Shown: positions 5,034 through 64,000 of the stretch, piece after piece | Layout: each line of letters starts with the position of its first letter | How positions within the stretch are numbered: position 1 is the first letter of the stretch | DNA from: a virus | DNA length: 64,000 nt | Direction: 5' to 3' (one strand) | IMG/VR virus record: IMGVR_UViG_3300036832_000827 | Coordinates: 4,916 to 68,915 of that record | The notes under the pieces: generated by a model | What the model was told of the DNA's origin: nothing | Databases searched by the model: none | The model's input: only the letters and a program-made list of their open reading frames with translations | Made by a program: the position numbers and the translations under genes

Positions 5034-5247
5034 TAGGATATGTTTTTCAAGGGCGACAAGTTAGTGAAGAGACGTTTCATTTATCAAGATGTAGTCCCTT
5101 CGGGCATTCGCCCCTCTGGTTTTTGAAGGGCGCCGGGCTTGTTTCTAAGCAGTCATTCCCATTTTCGTTCTTTGATGCTTAGCTAAAACCCGGACTGCAC
5201 GCCCTCTGGTTTTGGATTATCACCTAGTGTGATACAAAAATGCAACT

Positions 5248-5288
5248 GAAAATAAAAGGGCCGGGAGTCTCCCACACCACCCGGCCCA
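5248..5288 (-). terminator. Rho-independent terminator downstream of the tas/array-1 transcript
   Basis: Minus strand GGGCCGGG...CCCGGCCC followed by TTTTATTTT. Confidence 0.6.
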
Positions 5289-5339
5289 CTTTCAAGGTTG
5301 CGGATTTTGGGGTCCGCACTCCTTGAAAACTTAAAATTG

Positions 5340-5892
5340 CTCGTTCACTGTGTGTGTAAGATCGCGATAATTAACTCGTTCGGACGTTGTGAAATTCAAC
5401 ATTTATAACTCGGTCATTGCAAATGAAATTCGCTCAGTATCACTCGTTCCCCACCTCTGAAATTCAGACTTGCTCACTCGGTCATCTTTCTTGAAATTCA
5501 GTTTTTCTAACTCGTTCTCATGGAATGAAGATCTAAACCCTTTAACTCGTTCTACGTATATGGAATTCTCGTATGCTAACTCGTTCGAATTTCAGGAAAT
5601 TCTTAATTCGTAACTCGGTCGCTGACTTTTGAAGATCGCACTCGTTACCTCGGTCGTCGATTTTGAAGATCAGCCTTGTTACCTCGTTCTATTGCCATGA
5701 AATTCCTTCGGCTGTAACTCGGTCATATATTATGAAATTCCCGCAGATTCACTCGTTCCTCAGTATTGAACATCTGTACAATTCACTCGGTCTTTGACCT
5801 TGAAATTTCCTTTACCATCACTCGTTCTAATTACTTGAAAGTCTCACCATTTAACTCGGTCGTAATATTTGTAACATCACCCTCAATCACTC
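5340..5892 (-). ncRNA. TIGR-like dual-repeat guide array 1 (16 units, ~34 nt period)
   Basis: On + strand alternating t(a/c)actcg(g/t)tc - 8 nt variable - tgaaattc (variants tgaagatc, tgtaagatc) - 8 nt variable; first repeat overlaps the stop codon of the Nop-domain gene. Confidence 0.9.
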
Positions 5893-6756
5893 AAAAGGGT
5901 CGTTCGGCGGCGCGATGTAATCTGCGTGCCCTTGTATCGCAATCGTGTACGGAGCGGCCGGACCCTTACCGAATCTATATCGATAGGCGATCTCGTGCCA
6001 GTGCGAAATAAAGAGTTTGACGGCTTTACGCTTTGCCCTGGCATGGATCTGTGCGGGCGGCAGCTTCCCGCTTGTGTAGTGGCCAAAGGCGTCGGTGTCG
6101 GTGCGGAACTTCTTCTGGCTTAGGATCTTTTTTGCCTCGTCGGCGTAGGCACCGGCGTCGTTTTGGGCCGTGTAGTATTCTTTGGCCTTCAGATAGATCT
6201 TTCCGTAAAAATCTTCTTCGCGTCCGGATTGTTTTACGAACGATTCGCCGATCTTCCAGAACAATACTTTCAGCCGGGCATTGAACGGCCGGCGCTCGCC
6301 TTTTTTCCATTCGACGTTCGGGTTGAGCCCTCCAAAGCTTTCGATATGGCCGGCTGTCGGAGCTTTTTCGATGTCGATATGAGCAAGGAGCCCGGCGGCG
6401 AGTACACCGGCGATCCCGGTTATCGACATCGACCAGCGGCCGACGGCATCGCTCTCCGCATAGGCGGTAAGAGCTCGTTGCAGTTGTTTTTCGAGATAGG
6501 CGGTGTTGTCGGCCAGCCAGCCGATGACGGCATGGGGCGTATCGGCCGCACCCGATGCCCGGACGCGTGCCGCTGCCCGGATGCGCTCTTCCTGGAGCGT
6601 GTAGTAGTAATCGACCAGAAAGCGGATCTCGTCTTTTGAGAGCGTGGCGGTCGAATCCTTGAGGTCTTTTGTGAGTTTAATGATGCCGGCCTGTTCGACA
6701 TCGGGGCCGGGTTCCGGGTCGGCGTATCTGATTTTTGTCGCTGTTGCTGTTCTCAT
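5887..6756 (-). CDS. tasA: TIGR-associated Nop-domain protein lacking a nuclease domain (TasA-like), 289 aa
   Basis: IS110/Nop-like C-terminal region (SITGIAGVLAAGLLAHID...GHIESFGGL...FNARLK...LPPAQIHARAKRKAVKLFISH) preceded only by a coiled coil; no DEDD RuvC or HNH motif seen; abuts the dual-repeat array. Confidence 0.85.
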   Translation of the reverse strand: MRTATATKIRYADPEPGPDVEQAGIIKLTKDLKDSTATLSKDEIRFLVDYYYTLQEERIRAAARVRASGAADTPHAVIGWLADNTAYLEKQLQRALTAYAESDAVGRWSMSITGIAGVLAAGLLAHIDIEKAPTAGHIESFGGLNPNVEWKKGERRPFNARLKVLFWKIGESFVKQSGREEDFYGKIYLKAKEYYTAQNDAGAYADEAKKILSQKKFRTDTDAFGHYTSGKLPPAQIHARAKRKAVKLFISHWHEIAYRYRFGKGPAAPYTIAIQGHADYIAPPNDPFE

Positions 6757-6761
6757 ATTTT

Positions 6762-7091
6762 TTAGTGTTTTGTATTATCCATCTCTTCCAAAAATTCCGA
6801 TAGTTCTTTCTGCATTCGTTCGGCTTCGGTCTCAAAATCCCCCTCGATCACTTTGTCGGCTATCTCCAAAAGCCGGCGGCTGGCGGTTCGATCTTTCGCC
6901 TTGAACACGATGAGCGGTTTTTCAAGCAAGATCGCGAATCCGACTTCAAGGGCGATCTTGATGTCGGCGCTTTTCTCGTTCGGTGCGATCGCGACGACAA
7001 GAGCGGAGTCGACGATCATCGGGCCGACCTCGCGCTCAAAGCGGGCCATGTACTCCATAAGATATTTTTGTTCTTCAGAACCGAAGGGCAT
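6762..7091 (-). CDS. Hypothetical protein, 109 aa (possible nucleoside deoxyribosyltransferase/TIR-like fold)
   Basis: ALEVGFAILLEKPLIV resembles the E-x-G-x-A-x-x-x-x-KP motif of that fold; co-transcribed with tas. Confidence 0.45.
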   Translation of the reverse strand: MPFGSEEQKYLMEYMARFEREVGPMIVDSALVVAIAPNEKSADIKIALEVGFAILLEKPLIVFKAKDRTASRRLLEIADKVIEGDFETEAERMQKELSEFLEEMDNTKH

Positions 7092-7306
7092 CAGGGTATC
7101 TCCGCTCGGAGCGTGCTGGGCGCGATCTCAAATTGCTCGATCAGGACTTTTATGACCATCAGGGCGTCTTCCTCATTCATTCCTTCGAAGGCTCCTGAGA
7201 ATTTGTCTTCCTGGCGCGAAAAAAAGACCGCGCAGATCGCATCACCGTCGTCCTTGGCGAGCTTAACAAGTGGGGCGATAAGCGTGTCATAATATTTGAT
7301 CTTCAT
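7091..7306 (-). CDS. Hypothetical protein, ~71 aa
   Basis: Likely start MKIKYY overlapping the upstream stop (ATGA). Confidence 0.5.
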   Translation of the reverse strand: MKIKYYDTLIAPLVKLAKDDGDAICAVFFSRQEDKFSGAFEGMNEEDALMVIKVLIEQFEIAPSTLRAEIP

Positions 7307-7722
7307 TGAATTTCGTCTATAAATTCCGCATCGAGCGGGTCGCCGCCTGTTACCTGGCGATCTTCGATCTCGCACATATGCTTGACGATCTGCTTGTGTC
7401 CTTCTTCGGCCTGGGCCCACGTTGAATATCGCATCATGATCTCGGCCTTCTGCCCGCGAAAGACGGCAGTTTCAAAAAGCAGCGGCGGCCCGATCCCGCC
7501 GTGGTTGTGATCGAGGCCCAGGAAAACGGTCGAGACAAAAGCGTCTCCGCTCAAGGTCGTTAGAGCAACCTGCCGATCGGCACTCTCGAACCACTCGGCA
7601 GCTTCGAGAAAATCCTCGCATGGAATGGCCTGGCGGTTCTCGTCCAGAACATAGTGCCTAATGCGGAGAAACTGCTGTAGTTCCCTTTGCCACTTTTTGA
7701 GTTCTTCCTGTAGCTGGCCCAT
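7303..7722 (-). CDS. Conserved phage hypothetical protein, 139 aa
   Basis: VSTVFLGLDHN...PLLFETAVF motif recurrent in phage hypothetical proteins. Confidence 0.6.
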   Translation of the reverse strand: MGQLQEELKKWQRELQQFLRIRHYVLDENRQAIPCEDFLEAAEWFESADRQVALTTLSGDAFVSTVFLGLDHNHGGIGPPLLFETAVFRGQKAEIMMRYSTWAQAEEGHKQIVKHMCEIEDRQVTGGDPLDAEFIDEIQ

Positions 7723-8578
7723 TGCCTACTTCTCCGCCGCTTTTTTTATCGGCCGCTTCCGGCTTACTACTGCGCTCCTTTTGTCGTGCTTCTTTTGCTG
7801 CCAGCTTGGCGGCGTCGGTGCCGTACCGGATCGGGACCTTCTTTGTCGTGCCGGAGTTGAAGATCTCTTCTATCATTAAAAGATTTTGGTCGATCTTTGG
7901 CCAGTACTGGAACATGTGTTTGTGCTCTTTCGCCCGCTCCATAAATTTATCAAAATTGAAGCCGACGCGCCCGAGGGCGATCAGCATGGCTTTTACAAAG
8001 ACATCCTGGCGATAGCCGCTCGTGTAGTCCTTAAGCTGGGCGAACATGGCCGCCTTTTTTTCGGCGTCGGCAATATCGGCGACGCGGAACTCGCCTTCGC
8101 GGAAGAGCTTTCGGCTCTCGCGCATGTCGCGTCCGGTCAAAAGGATGACGGCGACCTCATGAGGAAAGGTGTACTTCTTTCGAAATGCCCGATACGTTTT
8201 GTAGTGTTTATTGCCCAGCTCGATAAAGCTTCCGGCGTAGTCCTCATTTGTCCATTGCAGCGTTGTGTTGTTGAGCGTCTGGACGTCGTGGAGATCCATC
8301 TTCTCGCCGAACCGATAGTAGACCGGCAGTGCGAGTTCCCGCCTGGCCTCTAAGGTGTGCTGGCCGTCAACGATCTCAAAGGTCTTGTTGATAACGATCG
8401 GGACTTTCAGGTCGTGCTCCTCGATCTTTGCCTTGATGTTCTGAACATGGCCGAAACGAACAGGCCGGTTCCCCGGCATCCGTTTGAATTTGTCGTATTC
8501 CGTCGTTGTGTAGATCTTTGATTCCGGGTCGGTCGATACAAAAACCCGCTTGGGCGGCGGCGTGCTTTTTGGGGACAT
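7658..8578 (-). CDS. ParB/Srx-like N-terminal domain protein, 306 aa
   Basis: GNRPV...PIVIN...IVDGQH motif; first gene of the tas operon. Confidence 0.7.
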   Translation of the reverse strand: MSPKSTPPPKRVFVSTDPESKIYTTTEYDKFKRMPGNRPVRFGHVQNIKAKIEEHDLKVPIVINKTFEIVDGQHTLEARRELALPVYYRFGEKMDLHDVQTLNNTTLQWTNEDYAGSFIELGNKHYKTYRAFRKKYTFPHEVAVILLTGRDMRESRKLFREGEFRVADIADAEKKAAMFAQLKDYTSGYRQDVFVKAMLIALGRVGFNFDKFMERAKEHKHMFQYWPKIDQNLLMIEEIFNSGTTKKVPIRYGTDAAKLAAKEARQKERSSKPEAADKKSGGEVGNGPATGRTQKVAKGTTAVSPH

Positions 8579-8634
8579 GCTTCAGGATTCTCCTTTTCGT
8601 TTTGCTTGAGAGAGTGGTTGATTTATAAACTTTG

Positions 8635-8741
8635 CTTATATACCGTAATACTACGCACTGTCAATCGGTATTTATACGTATTTTGCCAAAAACCGACATA
8701 TAACACAACTATTGACTGCTAGTTTTTATGTGGTCTATAAT
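8635..8741. promoter_or_regulatory. Divergent sigma70 promoters (tas operon on -, RHH gene on +)
   Basis: Minus TTGACA(8664-8659)-18-TATAAG; plus TTGACT(8712)-18-TATAAT(8736). Confidence 0.6.
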
Positions 8742-8765
8742 GGCTCAAAAATCCCTTTGCGAAAA

Positions 8766-9005
8766 ATGGTAGACGAAACTATGACGAACCCACAGCGAAA
8801 GCGTCCTTCACTGATCGCTTTCAGCGCGGATGACGAAATGATAGATCGACTGAAACGGTTGGCTGCTCAGATGGGCGTGACGGTCTCGGATATTGCACGC
8901 TCGGCCCTTAGCGAGAAGCTGAATTCGCTCGAAAAGGCGATCGAGCGGGGAGAGCGTTTTGAGGTCAGGCGACCGCTTGGCGTGATCTCGCCGGTGGCGG
9001 GCTGA
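8766..9005 (+). CDS. Ribbon-helix-helix (CopG-like) regulator
   Basis: LIAFSADDEMIDRLKRLAAQMGVTVSDIARSALSEKL; start may be 8766 or 8781. Confidence 0.7.
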   Translation: MVDETMTNPQRKRPSLIAFSADDEMIDRLKRLAAQMGVTVSDIARSALSEKLNSLEKAIERGERFEVRRPLGVISPVAG

Positions 9006-9195
9006 CCGACGTTCTGGTGATCTCGAAATTGTGCTTCCAGGCGACGGTGAACCAAAGCCGGCGTAGTTCGGCGTAGATCGGTCTCGCCGTCTCCGCGTCC
9101 TCGCAAAGATCGATGATCGTCCTGAGCTCGACCAGAGCGCCCCGCGCCAGCGTTGATAAGACGAGATCTCGCATTTCCTTTTCGGCGTCGGTCAT
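8965..9195 (-). CDS. Hypothetical protein, 76 aa
   Basis: ORF starts immediately after the 3' end of array 2. Confidence 0.45.
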   Translation of the reverse strand: MTDAEKEMRDLVLSTLARGALVELRTIIDLCEDAETARPIYAELRRLWFTVAWKHNFEITRTSVSPPPARSRQAVA

Positions 9196-9213
9196 TTAGT
9201 TAAAAGTGGAAGA

Positions 9214-9900
9214 CGTTCGCATCTGTTGTAAGATCTTCAGTTATCACTCGGTCAATTTCGATGAAATTCGCCTGCTGTGACTCGGTCGCCGTTAATGAAA
9301 GTCGTTTTCTGTCACTCGGTCACTTTGATTGAAATTCCGTGCGGATCACTCGTTCGTTTCTCCTGAAATTCTCGCGCAATCACTCGTTCGCTTCATTTGA
9401 AATTCTTTAAGAATAACTCGGTCATTTCACATGTAAGATCGGACTTCGTAACTCGGTCGAGCTTCTTGAAATATCAGCATGGATGACTCGGTCACTACAA
9501 ATGAAAGATCGTAATTCCTAACTCGGTCATTGTGTTTGAAGGTCATCTTGTGTAACTCGTTCTATTATCATGAAAATTCTTCGCAGGTAACTTGGTCGCA
9601 TCTTTTGAAATTCACGGGAAATCACTCGTTCATACGCAATGCACTTCGAATCCTGTAACTCGGTCATATTTTATGAAATTCACTTCAGGCAACTCGGTCA
9701 TATATCATGAAATTCATATAACATCACTCGGTCGCACCCTATGAAATTCTCTCGCGTTCACTCGGTCAGCTTTTCTGAAATTCGCTCCAAATAACTCGTT
9801 CGTCTACAATGAAGTTCCCCACTAATAACTCGGTCATATATCATGAAATTCATTCAACATAACTCGTTCCCATTTCATGTAAGATCCTTGTCAATTAACT
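9214..9900 (-). ncRNA. TIGR-like dual-repeat guide array 2 (20 units)
   Basis: Same edge (t(a/c/g)actcg(g/t)tc) and loop (tgaaattc) repeats with 8-nt variable spacers as array 1. Confidence 0.9.
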
Positions 9901-9913
9901 GGCCGCCATTCTA

Positions 9914-10174
9914 TCATTTCCCGCCTAAGATCAGCGATTTCCAATCGGTTCCGCTGCGGGGCATATTTTTTACGAATGGGATGTGATTGTTTGGATAGAC
10001 GACGCGGGGGCGTAGCAGCCGCTTCATGCGTTGGCCAAAGTTGCAGCGGTCGCAAAGCCACTTCAGGCGTGGGTCGAGACCGGGCTCGTTTATTTTGCTG
10101 TGGCACTTTTGGCACCGGATCTCATCATCCGTGACGCGGACCAATGGCTGATCTTTTGGGACCTCTTTTAGCAT
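9914..10174 (-). CDS. Small zinc-finger-like protein, 86 aa
   Basis: CQKC...CDRC; start overlaps the upstream stop. Confidence 0.45.
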   Translation of the reverse strand: MLKEVPKDQPLVRVTDDEIRCQKCHSKINEPGLDPRLKWLCDRCNFGQRMKRLLRPRVVYPNNHIPFVKNMPRSGTDWKSLILGGK

Positions 10175-26210: not shown

Positions 26211-26350
26211 CGTTCCAGGTCTTTGTAAAATCGGACGCGATCACTCGTTCAGTCTTTCTGTAATATCGGCAATCCTCACTCGTTCGTCGTCGCTGTAGTA
26301 TCGGTCTGCTTCACTCGTTCGCAATCGATGTAAGATCCATCTTCTTCACT
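26211..26350 (-). ncRNA. TIGR-like mini-array 3 (4 units)
   Basis: cgttc-8-tgtaaaatc-8-tcactcgttc-8-tgtaatatc-8-tcactcgttc-8-tgtagtatc-8-tcactcgttc-8-tgtaagatc-8-tcact. Confidence 0.85.
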
Positions 26351-28584: not shown

Positions 28585-28656
28585 TCGTTCCTTTTATGTG
28601 TAAAATCTAAGTTCCTAACTCGTTCGTCCAAATTGTAAAATCTGCCTAGATCACTC
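28585..28656 (-). ncRNA. TIGR-like mini-array 4 (2 units)
   Basis: tcgttc-cttttatg-tgtaaaatc-taagttcc-taactcgttc-gtccaaat-tgtaaaatc-tgcctaga-tcactc fills the exonuclease-SSAP intergenic gap. Confidence 0.8.
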
Positions 28657-31842: not shown

Positions 31843-32091
31843 TTAGTAACATAGTTAGTAGCTCTACCTTAAGTATTGCCCCGCAACCACTTAGCTCGAT
31901 ATGAACGGGTTCTCTTAATCCGCGAGTCAAAGGTTCGATTCCTTTACGACCCAAACCAAAAACACAGTGAAAAAGGCCGTAAAATGGGGGCGAAACGAGT
32001 TTTCGCCCTTTTGCATTTTAAACCCCGTCTGCTACAATATGACCAGAAAGCAGACGAAACATAGTTAGTAATAGTTAGTAAATAGTTAGTA
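31839..32091. mobile_element. attP: tRNA-Lys(CTT) 3'-half core flanked by ATAGTTAGTA arm repeats
   Basis: Core CTCTTAATCCGCGAGTCAAAGGTTCGATTCCTTTACGACCCA (31912-31953); ATAGTTAGTA at 31839, 31851, 32061, 32071, 32082. Confidence 0.85.
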
Positions 32092-32104: not shown

Positions 32105-33268
32105 ATGGCAAAAAAGACGAAGGGAAAATACCGGGATCGATGCGTCGAAATCGACGGCAAGTTGTATGGGGTCCATTATTACAAAAACGAAAAGGGCGAG
32201 CAGAAAAAGAAGCTAAAAAGAGCGGCGAACCGGACGGAAGCCCGGCAGTGGGCTGAGGCTCAGCTTGTCAAATTACAAGAGACTGGCGGCGTACTTAAGA
32301 TCGAGAAAAAGACGACCTTTGCCGAACTCGCGACGTGGTACAAAACGGCGCATCTCGTTGAGGCTGTTTTTGAAAAAGGCATCAAGGTTGATGGCGTGAA
32401 GGATTGGAAAAGATTGCGCGGAAAGCTTGATAGGATGGTTGAGTATTTTGGCTCTAAGCCATTAAGCGAGATCACTACTCCTGTGCTGGTCACGTATGCG
32501 CGCTGGCGGCGCGAAACTGACAACGTGACGACGGCGACGATCAATCGTGATTTCGCGCTGATCCGTTCGGCGTTCCTTGCCGGCAAAGGTCTCCATCGAC
32601 TTTTAGAGATACCAAAGTTCCCGATCAACAACGCGGCTGAAGTCTCCCGTGAGCGCGTGCTGTCCTTTGAAGAAGAAGAGCTCCTGCTTTCGGTCTGTGT
32701 CGACAAAGAGGTCATCACGGTCGAGCGGCTGGGGCAAACATACTCGCAAGAGATCCAGGCGAAGCGGGCGCACCTGAAAAACATCATCGTTGTCGCGGTC
32801 GATACGGCGATGCGGAAAGGTGAAATATTCAAAATGGATTGGAGCGATGTCGATCTTGGGAAAGGAATAATTACGATACCGGTCTCGAACTCGAAAACAC
32901 AAAGAGAGCGAGCCGTCCCGATGACGCCGCGCGTGCGCGAAATATTCGAAGCGATGCCAAGACGCAAAGGCAAGGTCTTCGACGGCACGGGCTGCAAACG
33001 AACTTTCGCGACCGCGTGCGAACGTGTCGGGTTGGTAGACGAAAATGAGATCCACTTTCACGATCTGCGACATACCGGCACGACGCGAATGGTTCGGGCG
33101 GGTGTCCCGCATACCGAAGTAATGAAAATTACCGGACACAGTCAAATGAAAACTTTCTTGCGATACGTAAACCTGACGGCGCCGGCGATCCAAAACGCGG
33201 GGCGGTTGCTTGGTAATTATGTCGAGTCTCAGATGGCTGAGGCTGCTGACTCGGAGGCGGTGAACTAA
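32105..33268 (+). CDS. int: Tyrosine integrase, 387 aa
   Basis: DTAMRKGEI (R), SKT (K), FHDLRHT (HxxR), TGHS...FLRY (H, Y). Confidence 0.95.
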   Translation: MAKKTKGKYRDRCVEIDGKLYGVHYYKNEKGEQKKKLKRAANRTEARQWAEAQLVKLQETGGVLKIEKKTTFAELATWYKTAHLVEAVFEKGIKVDGVKDWKRLRGKLDRMVEYFGSKPLSEITTPVLVTYARWRRETDNVTTATINRDFALIRSAFLAGKGLHRLLEIPKFPINNAAEVSRERVLSFEEEELLLSVCVDKEVITVERLGQTYSQEIQAKRAHLKNIIVVAVDTAMRKGEIFKMDWSDVDLGKGIITIPVSNSKTQRERAVPMTPRVREIFEAMPRRKGKVFDGTGCKRTFATACERVGLVDENEIHFHDLRHTGTTRMVRAGVPHTEVMKITGHSQMKTFLRYVNLTAPAIQNAGRLLGNYVESQMAEAADSEAVN

Positions 33269-36200
33269 TTATCGTGCTTCCTTGGCCTCTTGACGGCGCA
33301 TAGCTTCCCGTTGGGCTCTGATGGCGGCTCGTGCCTTCTCTCTTTGGACGGCAGTTTTCAGTAGACGCGGGAAAGCTATATCGAGTGCTGACTTAACGAA
33401 TGCCAGGCCCTCGCCTTTTGTGAGTTCCTGCTTCTTGTCGCGGTTGACGCCCAGGCTGTGCATGATGTCGCCAAGCGCCGGGTTGAGATCCAGGCCTCCT
33501 TCGAGGATGTGGCGGCCGATGCCGGCAGTCTTCGGCAGATCAGGTGGTTTGAAAAATTGGGCTCCATACTGTCCTTCGCGATCTCGAAGGGCCATGAGGC
33601 TCGGTTCGTATCCGGTCGCTGCTATCGATGCCGCCCTTACGACCGGTGAGCTGGTCAACGGGCCCGCTATCGAGTTGATCGTGCCGGTCGCTCCCGATTC
33701 GAGCATCTGCTCTTTTGATCCGCCAAGGATCGCCGTGTCGTACGCTCCTGAGATGCCGAGTGCTCTCGCCCCTCTTTCGACGAGCGGCGAGAACATCCCC
33801 AGTCCGACGTAGGCGGTCTTGTCATTGTCGCCCCATATCATTTTCGCGAGCGGTGAGTTGCGGTCCTTCGGATTTAGCGGGATCTGCAAAAAGCGGCTGT
33901 CCTTGTCATTCCAGGGCATGACTCCGCGATAGGCGTAAGACGCTGCCGCCCACATCCCGAGCATCCCCAGTACGCCCCCGGAAAACTGCTGTTGAGCTCG
34001 ACGAGCCATACGCCAGCCAGGGCTTAGACCTTCGGTTGGCAACGGCGTTTTATTTAGCCATCCCAGGACGCCGTTCTTTAGCATCTGGCTGCCAGCGGTA
34101 AAGAATGGGGCTAGTTGCGAACCTTTGAGCGATCGTGACAGTTGCGATTCGAGAGCACGGTTATAGATCCCGAGCTTCTGCACGAATTCCGCTTTCTCAT
34201 AGCGCGATGCGTTGGGGTTGATCGTTTCGGCAATTTTCCACATCACGATGCGAGAGCGCGTGTCGATCCCTTTCGGGCCTGTCAAAAACGGCCTGATCGG
34301 ATTCCATGTATGCTCGATCCCGAGTTGTGCAGCCAGCTTTTTCGAAAACGTCTTGTTGGCGAACTCGCTCGGAAACGCGCCGCTTTCGGCCATGTCCCTA
34401 AGCATGGCGGGGTCGCCTTTTAGCGGGTCGGTCATCGCCACATGGATGATCCCAGTAAGGATCTTTGTCGCCGGTGTATTGCCGATCGTGCGTGAAAGAA
34501 TATCCTGGCCTATGAATGGCGTTCCGCCGATAAGTCCGCCGACGAGATTCGCTGTATGGTAAATGGGCTCAAGAAGTCCGGTAGCACCAAACATGTTTAG
34601 CCGATTGAGTGTTTTGTTGACGATATTTGGGTCGTCCGGGTGTTCGAGCACGGGCTTTAGTTCCTTTGCCAGCCACTTCGGCACGGTGTACGGAACATTG
34701 CCGATCCGAAGGAAAGTCGTTGGTTGGCCCATGATCTCCGATGGCGGCTCGGCACCCGGCTTTAACGGTTTAGCGAGTCCCGCTATCTCCACCGAATCCT
34801 GCAAGTCGCTCATGTTCTGGTCTCTCAGGGCCTTTGCGATCTCAGGTGTCGGATTGGCTCCCGCGAGTATCTGCGCCTGGATCTGAGCGGTGGTCGTGGC
34901 ATACTTGACGACCTCGTCGGCCGCTTCCGGATCGACGTGGCGCAACTCGTTGAGGTTTTTGTTTACGAAGTTCTCAAGCGAGCGGGCCGACCTCATCACC
35001 TTGCCGCTCGTCAAGGCGTCATCGAGTTTGCCGAGGATCTTACGGGTAGCTGAGAAGCTTAATTTTTGTTGTACAGGACGTGTTTCAGGAACCTTTCCTT
35101 GTTGAAGTTCGGATGGCTGGGGTCGACCTTCACCATAAGCCGCTTGGCCCTGGCCGCCGCCTGGTCCCCGTGTTTCTCCCCGATCTCGTAGCTCAGTAGG
35201 AACTTGGCCTTTTCCTTCGGACTCCATCCCTGGGAGATGGCCTTGAGATTCGCTAGTGCGGCTTCTTTGCTCATATCGTTGAATTGCTTTTTCTGTTTGT
35301 TTACTGATGCCGCCAAGGGCTTGTCTGACCCGCTCTGCGGTTACGCCTTCAGAGCGTAGGTGCTTTTCGTATGCTAATTGTAACTCAGCAACCTCTCTGC
35401 GCGTCAAACCGAGATCGAGATGGCCGTCATCCCGATAGGCTTTGTTCATGATCTCTTTATACATGCCGGCATCGGAGATGTTCCGGTAGCTGGGCACGGT
35501 TCGTAAATTGGCCTCAGCTTTCTTGTAGGCCTGAAGTCCTCTGCCTTTGTCCGATATTTTGCCGCCTAGCAGTTCCTCGTGGGCTTGGTGAAATCGCTCT
35601 TCCTGGCGGGTTCCTTCGGACAGCGTAGGATAGTTCTCATCGACCAGACCAGTCGGAAGACCGTGTTCAGGGTGAACATTATCCTCAAAGGTCTTGATGA
35701 TCCGATCGAGGCCGTCGGCCATTTCGGGATGCTCCTTGCTGACAGAATCTCGCGCCAGCTTCAGCGCGTTGGTTACGTCTGCAACGTCTGCCGGCAGCAT
35801 CTGAAGTCCCAGGAACCTCTCGTCTGGCTCTACGCCGCCCAGTCTTCTGAGGAGGCGGTGCATTAACTCCAAGGCCGGTACGTTCATCTCGATCATCGGA
35901 CTTTTTGGATCTTTGGTGAACGTGGCGTCTCGCAGCAATTCACTATCCTTCTTATCCGCCAGGCCCGCTTGTTCCTGCCTAAGCTGATCGACCTCCTTGT
36001 TATAGTTTTCGATATGAGCCCGGTCCTCGGCCGGAGTCTCGGGTTCGGGAAGATGTTCGGCCGCATTGAAATTGATGTCGCCGGGGGTGATCGTCCTGTC
36101 ACCTTTGGGAGGCCTGAACAGATCTGACTGGGCCTCTTTCCGAGAGCTCTTCGCCAGGCCCTCTTCTGTTTCCCGCTTACCGATCTCGCCGATGTCCGCG

Positions 36201-39200
36201 ACCGTGAATCCCCCCTTGTCGCGAAATAGGGCGAGTTCCTTACCGGGATTCTTCTCTTGAAGCTCGGTTAATTTTGCTTTGGCGGTTGCCTTATCGGTCG
36301 GTTCTATGAGGCGATCGATCCTCTCGGGCGCGAATGGCGTCTCTTCGGCCTTGGTCTCGGGTTCGATCCGCTCGGCCGCATTGCTGTCTGCGATCTTTTT
36401 GAATTGCTCTGGCGTGAGTAGGTGGACATCTCCAGCCTTATTTTCGAGTTCGACCTTTCCCTCATCGTTGATGCCTTCAAAACGATAGGTGCCTTTCGGG
36501 AGGCCGGAAACGTCGCGGTTGGTCGCGATGCGATCGCCTTCCCGGAACTCCGTCCCTTTCTTTGTGGTGATCGCTGCCTCGGCTGGCTTGGTGACGGCTG
36601 GCTCTTCTCTCGGTGCTTCGGCCTTTGAGACTTCGGGCGGCTCGGTCACTTTCGCCGATGGCTCGGCGGGCTTGGCTTCGACTTGGCCCGTTGCCTCATC
36701 GACAAATTTATAGATCGCGTCGATCGCATTGTCGCGGGCCTCTTCGGATTTGAAGTAAAGGGTCTTTGTACGGTCGTTGGCAAAGTCCAGTTGGAGCCCG
36801 GCGTTTGCAACACCTTCAATCTGCGCTTTTCCGCCTTTTGTGATCCCGGTAATTGATGTCGGCTTTTCTTCTGAATAGGAAATACCCCTAAAGTTCTCTG
36901 GATATTCGCTAAGAAATCCAAGAGCGTCATTGTTTTTAGCTCCGAGACCGTGAAGGGCGCTGTTGTCAAGGCCCTCGATGTCGCGGGCCATTATTCGTGG
37001 TTTTTGAGTCGATGGCTCGGCAGGCTTCGCGGCGCGTTCGGCTGCTGCGGCCTCGAACGTCTGACCAGGTGTGGACAGAAGATCCTTGGGGTCCATCTTC
37101 CCACTAAGGATGTCGTCGATGGCTGCGGCGTCCTTTTCAGGATCGAGATGGTATTTCTTGATTAGGTCGGCGCGGCGTGTCGCCTCATGCTCAGCCTCAA
37201 CGGCGGCAGCTTTCTGCTCGGCGATCGTCGTGGTCGGCTTCCCTGGCTTGGTTTCTTCGGTGGTTTTTAGTTCTTCCGGCTTTCCAGCTCGTGCCTCAGG
37301 CGATCCTTCCTGATCTGGCCGCGAAGCTTGTTTATCCTCTTGTTTAGGGCCTCGCTGTCCTGTCTCATCTTCAAGTTCCCTTCTTTCAATGATCTCTCTA
37401 CGAGCTTGCTGATATATCCGGTCGAGGTTGGTTTCCTTGAGGGGTTTTCCATTCGCTAAGAGACTATCATAGAGCTCCGACTTCTTAAAGCCCTTAATGC
37501 TGTCGTGCGGCAACGGGTCTTCCTCTGTCCCATATTTTGCTATAACGTCCTTCAGCCAGCCTGGGAAAAACTTACCTTCGCGAAAGGGAATGATCTGGTT
37601 TGTTATGAACGCATCGGCGGCTTGAATGGTGTCCAGAAATGCATCGGCGGTCTTGCCGTCTTTAGGCAGCGCGTCACGGTGATTGGCAATCCAGTCAAGC
37701 CACTCTTCGGGCGTCATGTACGACGAGCGCTCCTTGCCGAACTGCTCCTGGGCCATCTTGTCGCGGAAAGCGGAAAACGCTGTTTTGAAAGCGGCGTGGT
37801 CGGCGTCGGCCGGCAACGCGTGGTCTCCCAGGCCGATCGCTTTAAGTAGCTGGTTGACCATCTTGATGCGGTCCGCCTTCTCCGCGTCGGGCATGGCTCC
37901 TTCGAGGCCAAAGCGGTCGATCATGTAGTTGTTGACCATCCCGTGAGGTCCGGGTATGGGCAATTCTTTAAGTCCTTTGACCTGGTCGACGGAGATCCCT
38001 AATTTCTCCGCGATGGCGTCGTCCGTCTTGCCGTCGCGCTTCATCCGGCGCGCTTCTCTTGTGGCCTCTGGCGTGAGTGGCTCGGGTTTGCCGGGAAAGA
38101 GTCCTGGCACTTCGCCAACTCCGGCACCCACGGTCGCGGGTTCGCCTTCCTTGGCAGGTTCGGGTTTTACTTCTTCAGCTTTAGGGGTTTCAGCGGCGGG
38201 GGCTGCGGCAGTGGTCGCGGCGCCGGGGGCGGTTTCGGCTCGTTCATGATCTGCGCGTGGTTCGTTCTCAAGATCCGGCCCAGCACCCTCGGGCTGAACT
38301 CCCTGCCGTGCTTCGTTATAAGCCTGGAATATCGCATCGCCGTGGGTAGCTCCACTTTCGGCGTCGGTGGCAAGGGGTTCAAGGCCGTGTTCGAGCTGCT
38401 TGTCGTCGTAGGCTTGTCTAAGTCGTCTGACGTCGGGGTCGGATTCGTTGAATCTGAGGTTGCCATTCGGGTCATAGTCTACTCCTTCGTCGTTATCGAT
38501 CCTATCGCGTATTTCGTCCAGGATCTTTTGAGCTTCCGGGTCTTGGAGAAAGTTCTTCGTGCTCCGGATCAGCGCGGCCTGTCTTCGGGCGTACTCTCCT
38601 GCGGCTTCCGGAGCGTTGTCACGCTTGCGGACATATTCCTCTTCGGCTGCGGCGTAGTCGGTGTTGTCGTAAAGCTTCTCGAAATCATCCTTCGAAAAGT
38701 GCAGGCCGCGTCCCGTTTCCTTGTGACTGGCGACGTCGTCTTCGATAGCCGTCCACAACTGATTGCCATTGGCATCTCGTCGGTCGGGCCAGAGGTCGCG
38801 CAGGTAGCCGGCATCCCAGGCCATCACGGCCATTTGCTCGGCGGTAAAGGGCGCGTTTTGGTTCTTAAGGCCGGAACTGCCGGTCTCTTTGTCCGACAGA
38901 CGCCGGCCCTCGCCGCTGTCTCGTGATACTGGTCTGATCCCGCTTTGCCCGTCTCGCTTCTGGCGCACCCATTGGGAAAGCGACTTGACTCCCTGCGGCA
39001 CGGGCGGCTGCGTTTTGCCGCCTTCTTCGGTGCCGGGTCCGCCCATTGCCCATGGCGGGACTTCTTCCTCTGTTGGCGGCTTCGCAGGTTCGGCTGCGAT
39101 TTCCGCTTCACCCTCAGATGGGACGTGTATTGGAAGCGATGCGTGTGCGGTGGGTGTGATTTTGTCGCCTTCTGGCCTCTCAAAGTGAATTATCACATCT

Positions 39201-42200
39201 GCGGCGGCCCCAGTTCCGGCTCGCTCCCCGACGCCTTCGCGGGTTTCACGAATGTTTACTTCGACGGGCTTGCCTCGATGTGGGCCGGTCGTCTCCCAAT
39301 CTTCAACGTCATCGGGATGTGGTCTGTATTCCTGTTTGAATTGTTCCCAAGATATAACGCGCCCACCTAGTGTGGTCTTTCTGCCGTCAGCTCGAAATCC
39401 ACTGAAAACCGTTTTTCGAACGCCGTCCTTTTCAGTTGTTTCCGCTGTCCACGTACCGCCTGACGGGTTCGTGCCGCTTGTGGGGCTTTCTGTCGGCGTC
39501 TCGGCCTTTGGCGTCGGCTGGGCTACTTCTTCTCTTCGAAGTCGCTCACGCTCGTCGCTGAGCGCGGCGTGTTCGTGGGTGCGGTCTGGCAGCGGCAGGC
39601 GGTTATCGCCCGTGATCGCGGCGATACGTTTGTCGAGCTCCTTGATGGCTCCTGGCCGGCCGTGTTTCTCTACAAGAGCGTTCGCCACTTGTTTTGCGTT
39701 GGCCTTGGCCTTGTCTTTGTTGGCTTGCTCTTCGGCTGCGGCCTTGGCCTTTTCTTCCGTTGCGGCCTTGGCTTTGGCCACTCCTTCGAGGCGGCCGGGC
39801 TCGTTCGCGATGTAGTCTGCGGCGTCTGTTTTTGGAACGTTCGCATCCGGCAACTTGCTGCGGTAGACTTTCTCACCCTTCGGGCCGTAATTGAACCGGC
39901 GCGCTTCCAGGGAACCGGTCGGCGTCTGGCGGCCGGTAAGCTCAACCATTCCGTGCTGCGGGTGCATGAAGGTCTGACCTGCGAGATCGCTCGTCGCCTT
40001 TGGCGTCGGCATCTTCCCGGAGTCGAGTTCTGCCCTGCCTCGTTCGCTTATCAGTTGGTGAGCGTAATCCTCGTATGAAAGTCTATACGTGTCGTCCGAA
40101 TTGAAGTCGACGATCCCTGCCTTGTGAAGTTTGCGGAGAGCTTTCTGGACCTGGTCGAGTGGTGCGTTGTTGAGTGCTTTCGCGATCTCCGTAGAGGACA
40201 TTCGCTTGTCGCCAGTCAGGGCCCTGATGATCGGCTCGGCGTGCTTATCCCTGTTGATCGCGTATGCGACATCCTGGACGCGCGGGTTTGTTTTCCGCAG
40301 AGCTCCTTCTTCGGGCTCTTTGATCCCTGCGATCGGCTCTGCGCCGGGTGCTGTCGCGGTCGGCTCCGCTGCTGCGGTCGGTGCTGCTGTCGGCGCTGCT
40401 GGCTCGGGAATGTTAATTCCCGCTTTCCTCGCAGCGTCACGCAGCGCGGCCGGATCGCGAAGTCTGCTGGCGTCCGGTTTCACCGATTTTACGATCTTGC
40501 TGGCCTGCTTTGGATCTACTCCATTTGCGACCAGATATTTGTGTGCGTCCTCTGCCCCGAGTGGCTCTTCTGCGGGTGCAGCGGCCGTAGTCGGCTCGCC
40601 TGTCGGCGTTGTCGTCGGTTCGCCTGTCGGCGTCGTCGGCGCTGCGGGTGGAGTCTCGGTTGGTGGCGTCGGTGGAATTATCGGTTGGCCGGCGATGCCA
40701 AGCGGTTCTGTCGCCGTTCCTGTCGGCGTCGGCGTCGGGGCTCCTGGCGTTTCCTCGGTCGGCGGCGCTTGATATTGGTCGGTAAGCCCGAGGGGCTCGG
40801 CTCCGAACCTACGCGGGCCTTTGACGCCTGGCGCTTCTGGTGCTTCTGGATATACGAGCGGCGGTTTTGCCTGATTGCGCCAGTCATTGACCGTTCTTAA
40901 CTCGGCATCGATGTCGTCGATGCGAGAGCCGCTTCCCGGTTTGGGAACCTGTATGTCTTCCTGGGCCGCTGTCGAATTCGGAAAGAGACGCTGATAATTC
41001 GCGTACTCCGCATCTGTCATCGGCCGGAGTAGCCCTTGCTTCTCCTTATAGAGGTTGTCCTCATGCTGGCTGAGCACGCCGATATGTCTCGGCCCGATGA
41101 TCGCCTGCTGCACGCCGTCCGGCACCTTGCCCGTAACGTCGGTCAACGTGATGCCTCCGCCTTCCTTTTTGGTGATAAGGACATCTCTCGGATTCCCCTG
41201 GTTGTCCGGCAAGCGGATAAACTTGTTGTCCAGTTTTTCGAGAGTTTTGATATCGGCTTCCGTGGGGTCGGCTGTTGTTCTCTTTCCCTTACCGGCCATC
41301 GCAAAGTGCAGGATGCCCATGAGAAGAGCTTGGTCCAGCGCCTCATCCGATGTCCCGCCTTGGGCCTTCACCTGACCGTAGGTGATACTTCCTATGGTTG
41401 CGGCTCCGAGACTTTCGTTGGTGAGCCTTGAGATGATCTGTCCCGCTCCGGCTGTCGTGTCGAGGCCGACGCTTGTGGCCAGCTTTTCGATCAGCGGTCC
41501 GGTCAATCCTTCGAGGATCGCCGGCGTCTCAAAAACTGCTCCGGTGAGACCGTCCTTCCAGGATTGCATAACCATCTCGCCGAACGGTCTGTTGGTGTTC
41601 GTCAAAGCTCCGTGAATGGCAAAGCCAAGGATCGGATCGCCGCCCGCCGCTACCGTTGAGCCGATGATTCCGGGAAAATCGCCAAGCCCCTGCGCGGCTG
41701 CGACGACCCTGCTGAAATTCGGATTTGGCTGGCCGTTTGGGAGCTTCTCGGGATTTGCTGCCTGGGCGGCGATGCCTGCCCCTTCGGACAATCTATCAAG
41801 CCAGGCGCTGGCGTTCCCGCCTGTTGCCCAGTTAAGCACCGGCTGCGTGTAGCGTAAGGCTCCCGCTCCCATCGCCGCTATGTCCCTGACCAACTCAAGC
41901 CCAGGCTGCGTGCCAACACGATTGAGAAGATTTTCCTTCCCTATCGTCTGACCGGCCTGCTGCATCTGAGCGATCTGCTGGTCGGTCATCTTTGTCTTGT
42001 TGAAATCGATGTCCTGAGTCAGCAAGTCTCGTTTGGCTTGGGCGACAAGTGCCGGGTTGCCTGCTACGGCGTAGGGCATGAGGTAGCGCTCAGCCGCCAG
42101 GGAACCGAGTTGCTGCTGCTGCTGCTCTGTCTTAGCTTTCTGTAAGTTGCGGAAGCTTCCGTAGTTTCCTAAAACGTTACTGACGAGGTCGTTGAGTTCC

Positions 42201-43732
42201 TTCGTGTGAGTACTTACATAATCCTGGTCGGGAAAGCCTGCCTGCTGCTTGATAGCGTTATAGGCTTTGGCTTCGTCATTCGCATCGGTTCTGAGACCTG
42301 CCTGCTGGTCGGCAAATATCTGTGCGAGATAGTCATCGTTGCCGTTGTTCTTGAGCAGCGTCGCTTTGTAGTCCTGCGATACGCCCTGCGCCTGTTTTGT
42401 CTGTCCGTACGCGTCAAGGATCTTTTGTATGAACTGGCTTGGGACAAGCTGCTGATGGGCCTGCCCGGTTTGAGCATTCGACTTTGCCAGATCCTCAAGG
42501 TTGCTCTCGGTCGTGCCGCCGCCCATCTTGTCGGCGTACTGCATCGGCTGTCGATCGACGTAAGCCTTCACAAAGTCGTACGGAACGCCCGTCGCCTGTG
42601 AGATACGGTACGTACTGGCGTCTTTTATGAACTGCGAATAGGTTTGGTCGGCCGGTTTTTCTCTCAGGTCTATTCCAAACTTGATGTCTTGCGGCGCGTA
42701 CTGGTTCGTGACAACGTTGGCCATCTGGTCCGGCGCTGGCGGCTGAGCGGGTTGTGCTGGTGCTCCGGGAGCTCCGGGCGCCGTGGGCGCTCCGGTTGGC
42801 TGCTGCTCTCCGGGCTGTCTGTATGTGATCTGACTGGGATCGATCTGCTGGCCGCCCTCGGTGTAGCCCGTATCCGGGGCTACCTCCGTGTTGGCTGAGC
42901 CGGTAGGCTGTGCGGCCGCCTTGAAAAAATCGTCCCGCGAAATTGGCGTCTGGCCTTGATCCTGGGTGAACTTCAAATACTGCTGATAGTCATCCTCGCT
43001 CGCCGGCGCAGCATTTTCGGCTGGAGCCTGTGTTGCGATCGGAAGTGTCGGCGCTACTGTCGTCGGCGCCGGCCGCGCTCCGGGAAGTGTCGCGGGCGAT
43101 GGCTGCTGTCCAAGGAACTGCGCAAGGCTTGGAGCATTCGCTCTGGACGCGGCCAATTTCGCGCTGATGTTGCGGACGTAGTTCTGTGTTTCTGGAACGT
43201 TTGGGATCTGCCCGTTTCGAAGGGCCTGCTTATATTCGCCCCCGTTGTATCCGGCAAGTGCGAGATTTTCGTCGCCGCCAAACTGATCGAGAAGTTTCCG
43301 CATGTAGCGGGCCTGGCCGTTGATCGATTGGATAGGATCGGTTCGATCGGTGACGCCGTACTTTGCGGCGGTGGCGGGCATGAACTGACCTGCCCCAAGC
43401 GCTCCGGCTGAGGAGCCGCGCCTTCCGTAGAGCACGTCCGGGCTGAAGCTTGTTTCCTGGCGGCCTTGTTCGAGAAGCAAGTTCGGGTCGACGTCGTTCG
43501 CGCGGCCGGCCTGTTCATAGAGACTGTCGAGTTTTGGGTGGCCGCTCGTCGTGTGAAGCAAACTAAAACCGCTCGGAAGATCTACGTTGTCGGCGTATGA
43601 CGGATATTTGCGTACGACGCGCGCCGCAAGATCGCTGTTGTCAAGATCGGCGTACTCGGGATATTTATCCTTGATCCGCTGAGCGAAATCGTCGACGGAC
43701 AGTTTCTGGTCAGTGTTGTCGCCATCGGCCAT
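33269..43732 (-). CDS. Giant internal virion/DNA ejection protein with N-terminal lytic transglycosylase, 3487 aa
   Basis: SLT motifs QETSF, GALGAGQFMPATA, ALAGYNGG within the first ~200 aa; last gene of the virion module. Confidence 0.75.
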   Translation of the reverse strand: MADGDNTDQKLSVDDFAQRIKDKYPEYADLDNSDLAARVVRKYPSYADNVDLPSGFSLLHTTSGHPKLDSLYEQAGRANDVDPNLLLEQGRQETSFSPDVLYGRRGSSAGALGAGQFMPATAAKYGVTDRTDPIQSINGQARYMRKLLDQFGGDENLALAGYNGGEYKQALRNGQIPNVPETQNYVRNISAKLAASRANAPSLAQFLGQQPSPATLPGARPAPTTVAPTLPIATQAPAENAAPASEDDYQQYLKFTQDQGQTPISRDDFFKAAAQPTGSANTEVAPDTGYTEGGQQIDPSQITYRQPGEQQPTGAPTAPGAPGAPAQPAQPPAPDQMANVVTNQYAPQDIKFGIDLREKPADQTYSQFIKDASTYRISQATGVPYDFVKAYVDRQPMQYADKMGGGTTESNLEDLAKSNAQTGQAHQQLVPSQFIQKILDAYGQTKQAQGVSQDYKATLLKNNGNDDYLAQIFADQQAGLRTDANDEAKAYNAIKQQAGFPDQDYVSTHTKELNDLVSNVLGNYGSFRNLQKAKTEQQQQQLGSLAAERYLMPYAVAGNPALVAQAKRDLLTQDIDFNKTKMTDQQIAQMQQAGQTIGKENLLNRVGTQPGLELVRDIAAMGAGALRYTQPVLNWATGGNASAWLDRLSEGAGIAAQAANPEKLPNGQPNPNFSRVVAAAQGLGDFPGIIGSTVAAGGDPILGFAIHGALTNTNRPFGEMVMQSWKDGLTGAVFETPAILEGLTGPLIEKLATSVGLDTTAGAGQIISRLTNESLGAATIGSITYGQVKAQGGTSDEALDQALLMGILHFAMAGKGKRTTADPTEADIKTLEKLDNKFIRLPDNQGNPRDVLITKKEGGGITLTDVTGKVPDGVQQAIIGPRHIGVLSQHEDNLYKEKQGLLRPMTDAEYANYQRLFPNSTAAQEDIQVPKPGSGSRIDDIDAELRTVNDWRNQAKPPLVYPEAPEAPGVKGPRRFGAEPLGLTDQYQAPPTEETPGAPTPTPTGTATEPLGIAGQPIIPPTPPTETPPAAPTTPTGEPTTTPTGEPTTAAAPAEEPLGAEDAHKYLVANGVDPKQASKIVKSVKPDASRLRDPAALRDAARKAGINIPEPAAPTAAPTAAAEPTATAPGAEPIAGIKEPEEGALRKTNPRVQDVAYAINRDKHAEPIIRALTGDKRMSSTEIAKALNNAPLDQVQKALRKLHKAGIVDFNSDDTYRLSYEDYAHQLISERGRAELDSGKMPTPKATSDLAGQTFMHPQHGMVELTGRQTPTGSLEARRFNYGPKGEKVYRSKLPDANVPKTDAADYIANEPGRLEGVAKAKAATEEKAKAAAEEQANKDKAKANAKQVANALVEKHGRPGAIKELDKRIAAITGDNRLPLPDRTHEHAALSDERERLRREEVAQPTPKAETPTESPTSGTNPSGGTWTAETTEKDGVRKTVFSGFRADGRKTTLGGRVISWEQFKQEYRPHPDDVEDWETTGPHRGKPVEVNIRETREGVGERAGTGAAADVIIHFERPEGDKITPTAHASLPIHVPSEGEAEIAAEPAKPPTEEEVPPWAMGGPGTEEGGKTQPPVPQGVKSLSQWVRQKRDGQSGIRPVSRDSGEGRRLSDKETGSSGLKNQNAPFTAEQMAVMAWDAGYLRDLWPDRRDANGNQLWTAIEDDVASHKETGRGLHFSKDDFEKLYDNTDYAAAEEEYVRKRDNAPEAAGEYARRQAALIRSTKNFLQDPEAQKILDEIRDRIDNDEGVDYDPNGNLRFNESDPDVRRLRQAYDDKQLEHGLEPLATDAESGATHGDAIFQAYNEARQGVQPEGAGPDLENEPRADHERAETAPGAATTAAAPAAETPKAEEVKPEPAKEGEPATVGAGVGEVPGLFPGKPEPLTPEATREARRMKRDGKTDDAIAEKLGISVDQVKGLKELPIPGPHGMVNNYMIDRFGLEGAMPDAEKADRIKMVNQLLKAIGLGDHALPADADHAAFKTAFSAFRDKMAQEQFGKERSSYMTPEEWLDWIANHRDALPKDGKTADAFLDTIQAADAFITNQIIPFREGKFFPGWLKDVIAKYGTEEDPLPHDSIKGFKKSELYDSLLANGKPLKETNLDRIYQQARREIIERRELEDETGQRGPKQEDKQASRPDQEGSPEARAGKPEELKTTEETKPGKPTTTIAEQKAAAVEAEHEATRRADLIKKYHLDPEKDAAAIDDILSGKMDPKDLLSTPGQTFEAAAAERAAKPAEPSTQKPRIMARDIEGLDNSALHGLGAKNNDALGFLSEYPENFRGISYSEEKPTSITGITKGGKAQIEGVANAGLQLDFANDRTKTLYFKSEEARDNAIDAIYKFVDEATGQVEAKPAEPSAKVTEPPEVSKAEAPREEPAVTKPAEAAITTKKGTEFREGDRIATNRDVSGLPKGTYRFEGINDEGKVELENKAGDVHLLTPEQFKKIADSNAAERIEPETKAEETPFAPERIDRLIEPTDKATAKAKLTELQEKNPGKELALFRDKGGFTVADIGEIGKRETEEGLAKSSRKEAQSDLFRPPKGDRTITPGDINFNAAEHLPEPETPAEDRAHIENYNKEVDQLRQEQAGLADKKDSELLRDATFTKDPKSPMIEMNVPALELMHRLLRRLGGVEPDERFLGLQMLPADVADVTNALKLARDSVSKEHPEMADGLDRIIKTFEDNVHPEHGLPTGLVDENYPTLSEGTRQEERFHQAHEELLGGKISDKGRGLQAYKKAEANLRTVPSYRNISDAGMYKEIMNKAYRDDGHLDLGLTRREVAELQLAYEKHLRSEGVTAERVRQALGGISKQTEKAIQRYEQRSRTSESQGHLPGMESEGKGQVPTELRDRGETRGPGGGQGQAAYGEGRPQPSELQQGKVPETRPVQQKLSFSATRKILGKLDDALTSGKVMRSARSLENFVNKNLNELRHVDPEAADEVVKYATTTAQIQAQILAGANPTPEIAKALRDQNMSDLQDSVEIAGLAKPLKPGAEPPSEIMGQPTTFLRIGNVPYTVPKWLAKELKPVLEHPDDPNIVNKTLNRLNMFGATGLLEPIYHTANLVGGLIGGTPFIGQDILSRTIGNTPATKILTGIIHVAMTDPLKGDPAMLRDMAESGAFPSEFANKTFSKKLAAQLGIEHTWNPIRPFLTGPKGIDTRSRIVMWKIAETINPNASRYEKAEFVQKLGIYNRALESQLSRSLKGSQLAPFFTAGSQMLKNGVLGWLNKTPLPTEGLSPGWRMARRAQQQFSGGVLGMLGMWAAASYAYRGVMPWNDKDSRFLQIPLNPKDRNSPLAKMIWGDNDKTAYVGLGMFSPLVERGARALGISGAYDTAILGGSKEQMLESGATGTINSIAGPLTSSPVVRAASIAATGYEPSLMALRDREGQYGAQFFKPPDLPKTAGIGRHILEGGLDLNPALGDIMHSLGVNRDKKQELTKGEGLAFVKSALDIAFPRLLKTAVQREKARAAIRAQREAMRRQEAKEAR

Positions 43733-63999: not shown

Positions 64000-64000
64000 A

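Follow-up and report, generated by a model that had tools for sequence, protein, structure and literature searches.

One 34-nt repeat unit of a TIGR array in a phage genome (positions 9529–9562, minus strand) belongs, as a real guide unit, to a TIGR-TasA system of the dual-repeat type that has a ParB-like partner, and the duplex target predicted for this guide closely resembles the operator box of NrdR, the ribonucleotide reductase repressor. The main reading, which is given a probability of roughly 40%, is that the guide has been retained for directing TasA to an NrdR-type operator of the host or of a competing phage. If the operators occupied are those of the host, no TIGR-Tas system would have had a natural target assigned before, and this would be the first phage guide RNA to copy the specificity of a host repressor. 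Natural targets of TIGR-Tas systems are described as unknown and hard to find, with 16–18-nt matches being noisy (PMC12045711; 10.64898/2026.09.09.750476), and the TasParB-associated TasA clade has no published natural target (PMC12045711). While TIGR-TasA/TasParB systems are already known as a kind, the hypothesis of a TasA guide directed at an NrdR-type operator is new, and in a literature search no paper linking TIGR-Tas to NrdR was found among the ten best-ranked of 26. The coincidence of the guide site with a conserved operator makes this a hypothesis that can be tested with a reporter, namely that promoters of the host or of competitors are repressed by the phage TasA in a programmable manner. 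Should the hypothesis fail, the case would show what strength of motif match one guide among a few hundred reaches without host support.

The phage, its tasParB-tasA operon and its arrays

The window, meaning the whole stretch of 64,000 nt that was analysed, covers bases 4916–68915 of a 68,915-bp contig and has a G+C content of 56%. About 155 bp are repeated, with one mismatch, at the two contig ends (window 63846–64000 and the contig's initial 155 bases), which fits either a circular assembly or the terminal repeat of a complete genome. A tyrosine integrase is encoded on the plus strand (32105–33268; phrog_1, E 1.3e-55), and approximately 150 bp upstream of it lies an attP core (31906–31953, plus strand) that corresponds to a tRNA-Lys(CUU) gene in its 3′ part, beginning in the anticodon loop and reaching the discriminator base. 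This tRNA fragment was detected via its T-loop motif; an Rfam scan around the integrase for a partial tRNA gave no match, and ARAGORN found no complete tRNA genes in the phage. The contig is read as a complete temperate soil phage. On the minus strand, a single ORF of 3487 aa (33269–43732) ends one base past the stop codon of the integrase.

The tasA gene (5887–6756, minus strand) encodes a 289-aa nuclease-free Tas protein with a coiled coil and a Nop domain. Searched against the PDB with phmmer, the protein matched TasR (9mty, E 5.2e-7) and TasH (21kl, E 9.1e-6), and amongst the PHROG families it matched phrog_4285 (E 3.9e-42). An AF2 model built on 22 relatives (pLDDT 82.1) is helical with one C-terminal hairpin and has residues 1–24 disordered; ranks 1–10 of a Foldseek search with this model are occupied only by TasH and TasR (E 3.4e-7 to 3.3e-6, TMq 0.51–0.60), with IS110-family recombinases coming next. 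The alignments begin at residue 154 of TasR and residue 123 of TasH, that is, past their nuclease domains, and Pfam detected no nuclease family in the protein, with neither a RuvC nor an HNH domain. A GH.DYI.PP stretch at the C-terminus aligns with TasR and may contain the published Y/H dyad. The protein is a TasA, encoded in an operon of the tasParB-tasA type known from Faure et al. (PMC12045711).

The same operon and strand carry a ParB-like gene of the TasParB type (7658–8578, minus strand, 306 aa; phrog_12305, E 8.2e-27), the product of which matched no Pfam family at E 0.01; a ParB-like gene associated with tasA has been described previously (Faure et al. 2025, PMC12045711). Three small ORFs lie between tasParB and tasA (6762–7091, 7091–7420, and 7303–7722, minus strand). 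The first of these, of 109 aa, belongs to phrog_18163 (function unknown) and gives a weak Pfam match, scored at 19.7 bits and thus below the cut-off of 28.8, to nucleoside 2-deoxyribosyltransferase (PF05014, E 9.8e-4). A ribbon-helix-helix (CopG-type) gene occupies the plus strand between tasParB and array 2 (8712–9005; PF01402, E 1.7e-5). A strong promoter-like site, TTGACT-18-TATAAT, falls at the listed start of this gene, which therefore probably begins downstream of that point. Amongst public sequencing runs, no RNA run is listed for window 5200–10000; the one run that contains it is a DNA run, which may be the source.

The phage possesses 42 tigRNA units, each of 34–35 nt with 8-nt spacers, in four places on the minus strand: array 1 (5347–5895, 16 units), array 2 (9219–9894, 20 units of 34–35 nt, upstream of the tasParB-tasA operon), a dispersed mini-array (26216–26345, four units that share the 9-nt loop type GATNTTACA), and a dispersed pair of units with the same 9-nt loop type (28591–28650). 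The two large arrays flank the ParB-like gene, the three small ORFs, and tasA. On the plus strand the repeat reads ACTCG[GT]TC, eight variable bases, TGAAATTC (or a 9-nt variant), eight variable bases, and two semi-variable bases, with a period of 34–35, and the edge pattern occurs 48 times in the window against 8.55 expected. Within the large arrays most occurrences of the GATNTTACA loop fall in the terminal units, first or last (5347, 5862, 9219, and 9870), and one is internal (9424). Spacer B TGATATAT is common to units 9700–9733 and 9836–9869, and its close variants TAATATAT and TAAAATAT occur in units 5725–5758 and 9666–9699, a distribution that looks like the re-use of half-guides. One target derived from the re-used spacer B, TGTTATATATATATCA, is the most palindromic of the 42 predicted targets.

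Guide geometry and likeness to the NrdR box

The geometry of the guide depends on the strand from which the arrays are transcribed. In minus-strand order, tasA runs directly into array 1, which is directly followed by an intrinsic-type terminator (5242–5287, minus strand) consisting of a G+C-rich hairpin and a T run. The TGA stop codon of tasA falls inside the 5′-truncated first edge repeat of array 1 (GAGTGA; 5887–5895), and gene and array therefore abut without a spacer. Relatives of TasA, none of them more than 56% identical, were collected from 7 genomic loci and 44 viral ones, and of the related arrays that have four or more units in a row, 34 of 34 are in the tas-sense orientation. These tas-sense arrays settle the choice of strand, and transcription of the phage arrays from the minus strand is the predicted state. 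Plus-strand transcription was considered in view of a weak terminator-like site after array 2 and was rejected because such sites are no commoner than in shuffles (8 found against 6.8 expected) and the other evidence favours the minus strand.

The repeats of the relatives read GAGCGAGCCA and GAGAGAACCA, both with a terminal CCA, and in the published systems the box C 'CCA' sits directly 5′ of each spacer (PMC12045711). PlTasA stacks on the box C adenine; SpTasH has spacers of 8 nt that form 8-bp heteroduplexes, and the architecture of PlTasA is the same. On the minus strand the phage repeats read GA[AC]CGAGTNA and GAATTTCA. As both begin with GA and both end with the box C adenine, the spacers are exactly 8 nt, as in SpTasH.

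Around the unit at 9529–9562 the plus strand reads ...ACTCGGTC ATTGTGTT TGAAGGTC ATCTTGTG TAACTCGTTC..., with variable 8-nt stretches at 9529–9536 and 9545–9552. Read on the minus strand, the unit consists of the edge repeat GAACGAGTTA (9562–9553), spacer A CACAAGAT (9552–9545), the loop repeat GACCTTCA (9544–9537), and spacer B AACACAAT (9536–9529). The predicted duplex target is CACAAGAT+ATTGTGTT, and the reverse complement of the second variable stretch followed by the first gives CACAAGATATTGTGTT. The joining order was derived from the cut pattern of TasR, since the texts of the papers give no sequences: TasR cuts both strands inside the spacer-paired stretch and leaves 8-nt 3′ overhangs (PMC12045711), which is possible only if one strand of the target reads as spacer A and then, in reverse complement, spacer B. 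With the array read on the minus strand, the published TasR data thus yield the same order in which an earlier note on this DNA had joined the two spacers. The joining rule is taken over from TasR, TasH, and PlTasA and would hold for the TasParB clade by analogy; TasA of this clade is predicted to dimerise in another way, according to an AlphaFold3 model of Faure et al. (PMC12045711). The earlier note had also argued that the palindrome forms only in this order and so supports the geometry independently, which is wrong: the other order also gives TTGTG/CACAA, with five pairs. Only the likeness to the NrdR box is specific to the order, and the palindrome therefore lends the geometry no independent support.

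The NrdR box spans 16 bp, of which C4, A6, A8, T9, T11, and G13 are highly conserved, with an A+T floor of 63% between C4 and G13 (PMC13584703). The predicted target shares all six of these core positions and the A+T-rich centre (7/8 between C4 and G13) with the operator and agrees at 14 of the 15 consensus positions covered, where the scoring consensus is that of the earlier note, extended to 16 positions, and the likeness is a consensus count only. The near-match to the NrdR consensus claimed at the outset is borne out by these counts. Guide and protein differ in what they require: NrdR needs two boxes 15–16 bp apart (PMC13584703), whereas the guide specifies a single box, of which it covers 15 of 16 positions plus one flanking base, and it would only share the site with NrdR.

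It is conceivable that this likeness is a chance resemblance, in which case the guide would be real, its natural target would be something else, and two A+T-rich 8-mers containing TTGTG would merely share a unit; this explanation is given somewhat under even odds. The extent of the match speaks against it, as 14 matches were reached in 3 of 400,000 within-spacer shuffles (7.5e-6 per guide, or approximately 3e-4 for 42 guides) and in none of 1722 cross-pairings of the phage's own half-guides, seven of which have all six core positions. In favour of chance, the motif was picked after looking, and the six core positions alone are expected 0.087 times per 42 guides. Because the shuffle figures concern one motif chosen in this way, the chance level is more like 1–5%, a rough estimate that allows for the tens of other known operators that one could notice.

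The other guides also lend weight to a chance resemblance. Nothing comparable was found among the other 41 guides of the phage, the runner-up in the same geometry having five core positions and seven matches in total, and none of the 248 unique guides in the 34 related arrays has the six core positions (0.48 expected). The targets of the related guides show no excess of palindromes over cross-paired targets. The NrdR-like guide is a single case and not a habit of the family. Short spacers are, moreover, reported to give many false target matches (Xu et al., 10.64898/2026.09.09.750476). Self-targeting was tried as a separate candidate and rejected, with the 42 targets giving no exact, no one-mismatch, and two two-mismatch matches in the 68.9-kb phage (cross-paired null means of 0, 0.07, and 1.4, respectively); copies of the 16-mer itself at up to three mismatches are absent from the window.

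The predicted target in public genomes and in the candidate host lineage

Using one genome per species from 185,579 species, an exact scan for the 16-mer returned at least 120 copies. Of the 120 copies among the matches listed, 57 have a partner NrdR-like box 28–36 bp away, compared with 84 of 4640 random positions in the same loci (1.8%), and 18 have a class I/II reductase gene as a neighbour, of which 11 lack a partner box by the criterion used. NrdR-type operator settings thereby account for 68 of the 120 copies listed, more than half, which argues against a chance resemblance. The nrdR gene itself is downstream of two of these 68 copies, and 64 of the 120 listed agree with the consensus in having an A immediately before the 16-mer. 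Several natural copies (e.g., loci L230, L260, L146, and L297) have the box between or beside promoter-like −35/−10 hexamers. Judged by its genomic settings, the 16-mer is a naturally occurring NrdR box in other organisms.

Exact copies also occur in viral contigs, where 26 of 112 have a partner NrdR-like box against the same background of 1.8%. These copies would suit a guide aimed at the NrdR boxes of other phages or plasmids, silencing the nucleotide supply of a competitor in a superinfected lysogen, and a role for these systems in contests among mobile elements is put forward in both TIGR papers (PMC12045711; 10.64898/2026.09.09.750476). A class I/II reductase match was found at only one of the 112 viral loci, a count obtained with queries that would miss distant enzymes as well as those of class III. 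No viral match is tied to the host of this phage, and a role confined to competitors is considered improbable.

The host was sought through the attP core. Exact attP pieces of 39 and 24 nt had no matches in the 185,579 species genomes, and a 25-nt piece comprising the T arm and acceptor had five, all from one order, in MAGs labelled as Deltaproteobacteria or Myxococcales. The tRNA-Lys(CUU) of these five MAGs is identical to the phage attP at 40/42 positions. The attP thus points weakly to one order of Myxococcota-like MAGs as the candidate host lineage, represented by 18 genomes, 15 of which have a tRNA within three mismatches of attP. No homologue of TasA or of a 696-aa phage protein was found in the candidate order, an absence that shows little, and the assignment, a weak one, comes from the 40/42 tRNA match. 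In metagenome contigs the integrase has relatives of no more than 39% full-length identity, and a tRNA-Lys was found at none of the 14 loci scanned.

NrdR is present in all four candidate-order genomes in which it was searched for (G001–G004), and a reductase gene is present in 18/18, most with paired NrdR-like boxes upstream. A site with zero or one mismatch to the predicted target was found upstream of the reductase genes in none of the 18, which is a further point for a chance resemblance; the closest boxes upstream of reductase genes have two mismatches (G008, G016, and G018). Genome-wide, an exact 16-mer occurs in G017 and a one-mismatch copy in G015, neither of them near a reductase gene. 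The earlier note had proposed to identify the host via the attP tRNA-Lys and to look for the site upstream of nrd genes there; the attP led to a candidate order, the reductase genes of that order lack an upstream site with at most one mismatch, and the one exact copy lies elsewhere.

In G017 a divergent dus gene lies at a distance of 57 bp from the copy, a TTGACA follows immediately downstream of it, and a second, weaker box is found 30 bp off. The region is conserved in G007, G012, and G003, where it has two mismatches to the guide and precedes a 91-aa gene of the HU/IHF family (PF00216, E 3.5e-29); in G017 the HU-like gene looks degraded. The pair of NrdR-like boxes, 30 bp apart and adjoining a −35-like TTGACA in the dus/HU-IHF interval, was observed at loci L193 (G017), L367 (G007), L368 (G012), and L179/L194 (G003). 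This box pair may represent a non-nrd member of the NrdR regulon.

At a broader scale, a sample of 401 genomes from the candidate phylum contains a site with at most one mismatch in 11 genomes, against one for the reversed control. Nine new one-mismatch sites are included, two of them beside a reductase gene and one, in a third genome, with a partner box. The proposal of a host nrd operator had been made contingent on an exact or one-mismatch site upstream of nrd genes somewhere in the host lineage or related phages, and the refuting outcome did not arise: one-mismatch sites are present in the phylum sample, in two genomes beside a reductase gene and in a third with a partner box, although the candidate order has none upstream of its reductase genes. 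In three acidobacterial genomes (L072, L153, and L154) an exact copy of the 16-mer neighbours a reductase gene. As hosts the Acidobacteria were rejected, an attP-like tRNA within three mismatches being absent from these three genomes and from two Terriglobales genomes; such a tRNA is likewise absent from five other genomes of the candidate phylum.

Predicted action of TasA and relation to known systems

If the guide acts on an NrdR-type operator, the arrays would be transcribed from the minus strand and cut into guides of approximately 34 nt, each with two 8-nt spacers that follow a repeat ending in the box C adenine. A TasA dimer would then unwind 16 bp, one strand being paired with spacer A and the opposite strand with spacer B, as extrapolated from the work on TasR, TasH, and PlTasA. 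The loading of this guide, a matching site in a host or competitor, and an effect of binding are all presumed steps. Bound TasA would sit on or beside the promoter and block transcription like the published TasA repressors, and a spreading of the ParB-like partner from the bound site would be speculation. In the specific form in which the phage TasA, perhaps loading its ParB-like partner, occupies the NrdR-type operators of the host and takes over the switch for dNTP synthesis and the HU-like gene, the proposal is considered doubtful.

Phages commonly raise the dNTP supply, and it might be supposed that TasA evicts NrdR without blocking RNA polymerase, so that expression of the reductase and the supply of dNTPs increase. 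TasR bends and unwinds its 18-bp target and might in principle open a promoter (PMC12045711). The natural boxes, however, often lie between or beside promoter-like hexamers, as at the four loci named above, and repression is the only function shown for TasA, the nuclease-free protein having been found to repress transcription in E. coli (Xu et al., 10.64898/2026.09.09.750476). Eviction is accordingly regarded as very improbable, and repression is favoured over it because published TasA and dead TasR block transcription in E. coli and natural boxes overlap promoters. The earlier note had left open whether Tas displaces NrdR from an nrd operator or blocks the operator; displacement is the weaker half of that proposal, and blocking is the likelier given that the boxes lie at promoter hexamers.

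The main reading, of TasA placed on an NrdR-type operator, draws on a precedent for nuclease-free DNA binding guided by two spacers, which is assumed here for the phage protein and has been described for MbTasA and catalytically dead TasR (Xu et al. 2026, 10.64898/2026.09.09.750476). Those are stem-loop systems with engineered guides in E. coli, whereas the phage system is of the dual-repeat type with a native guide. Cas12m (type V-M) and the type IV CRISPR effectors, which are nuclease-free and block transcription, are likewise borne on mobile elements and bind DNA under RNA guidance without cleavage; they differ from TasA in having another fold, a single spacer on one strand, and a required PAM (PMC12045711).

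The closest parallels are the dual-repeat TIGR-TasA/tasParB systems of Faure et al. 2025 (PMC12045711), which share with the phage a nuclease-free Nop-domain Tas, an operon that also contains a ParB-like gene and has arrays on either side, edge repeats that alternate with loop repeats, two short spacers per unit, and a terminator after the array. Compared with those systems (PMC12045711), the units of the phage are shorter (34–35 nt against 36, with a 10-nt edge repeat, an 8–9-nt loop repeat, and 8-nt spacers), only the final A of box C is left, and the repeats begin with GA in place of UG. The phage also differs from those systems (PMC12045711) in its two extra mini-arrays, the six dispersed units of which sit 17–20 kb from tasA amid unrelated phage genes.
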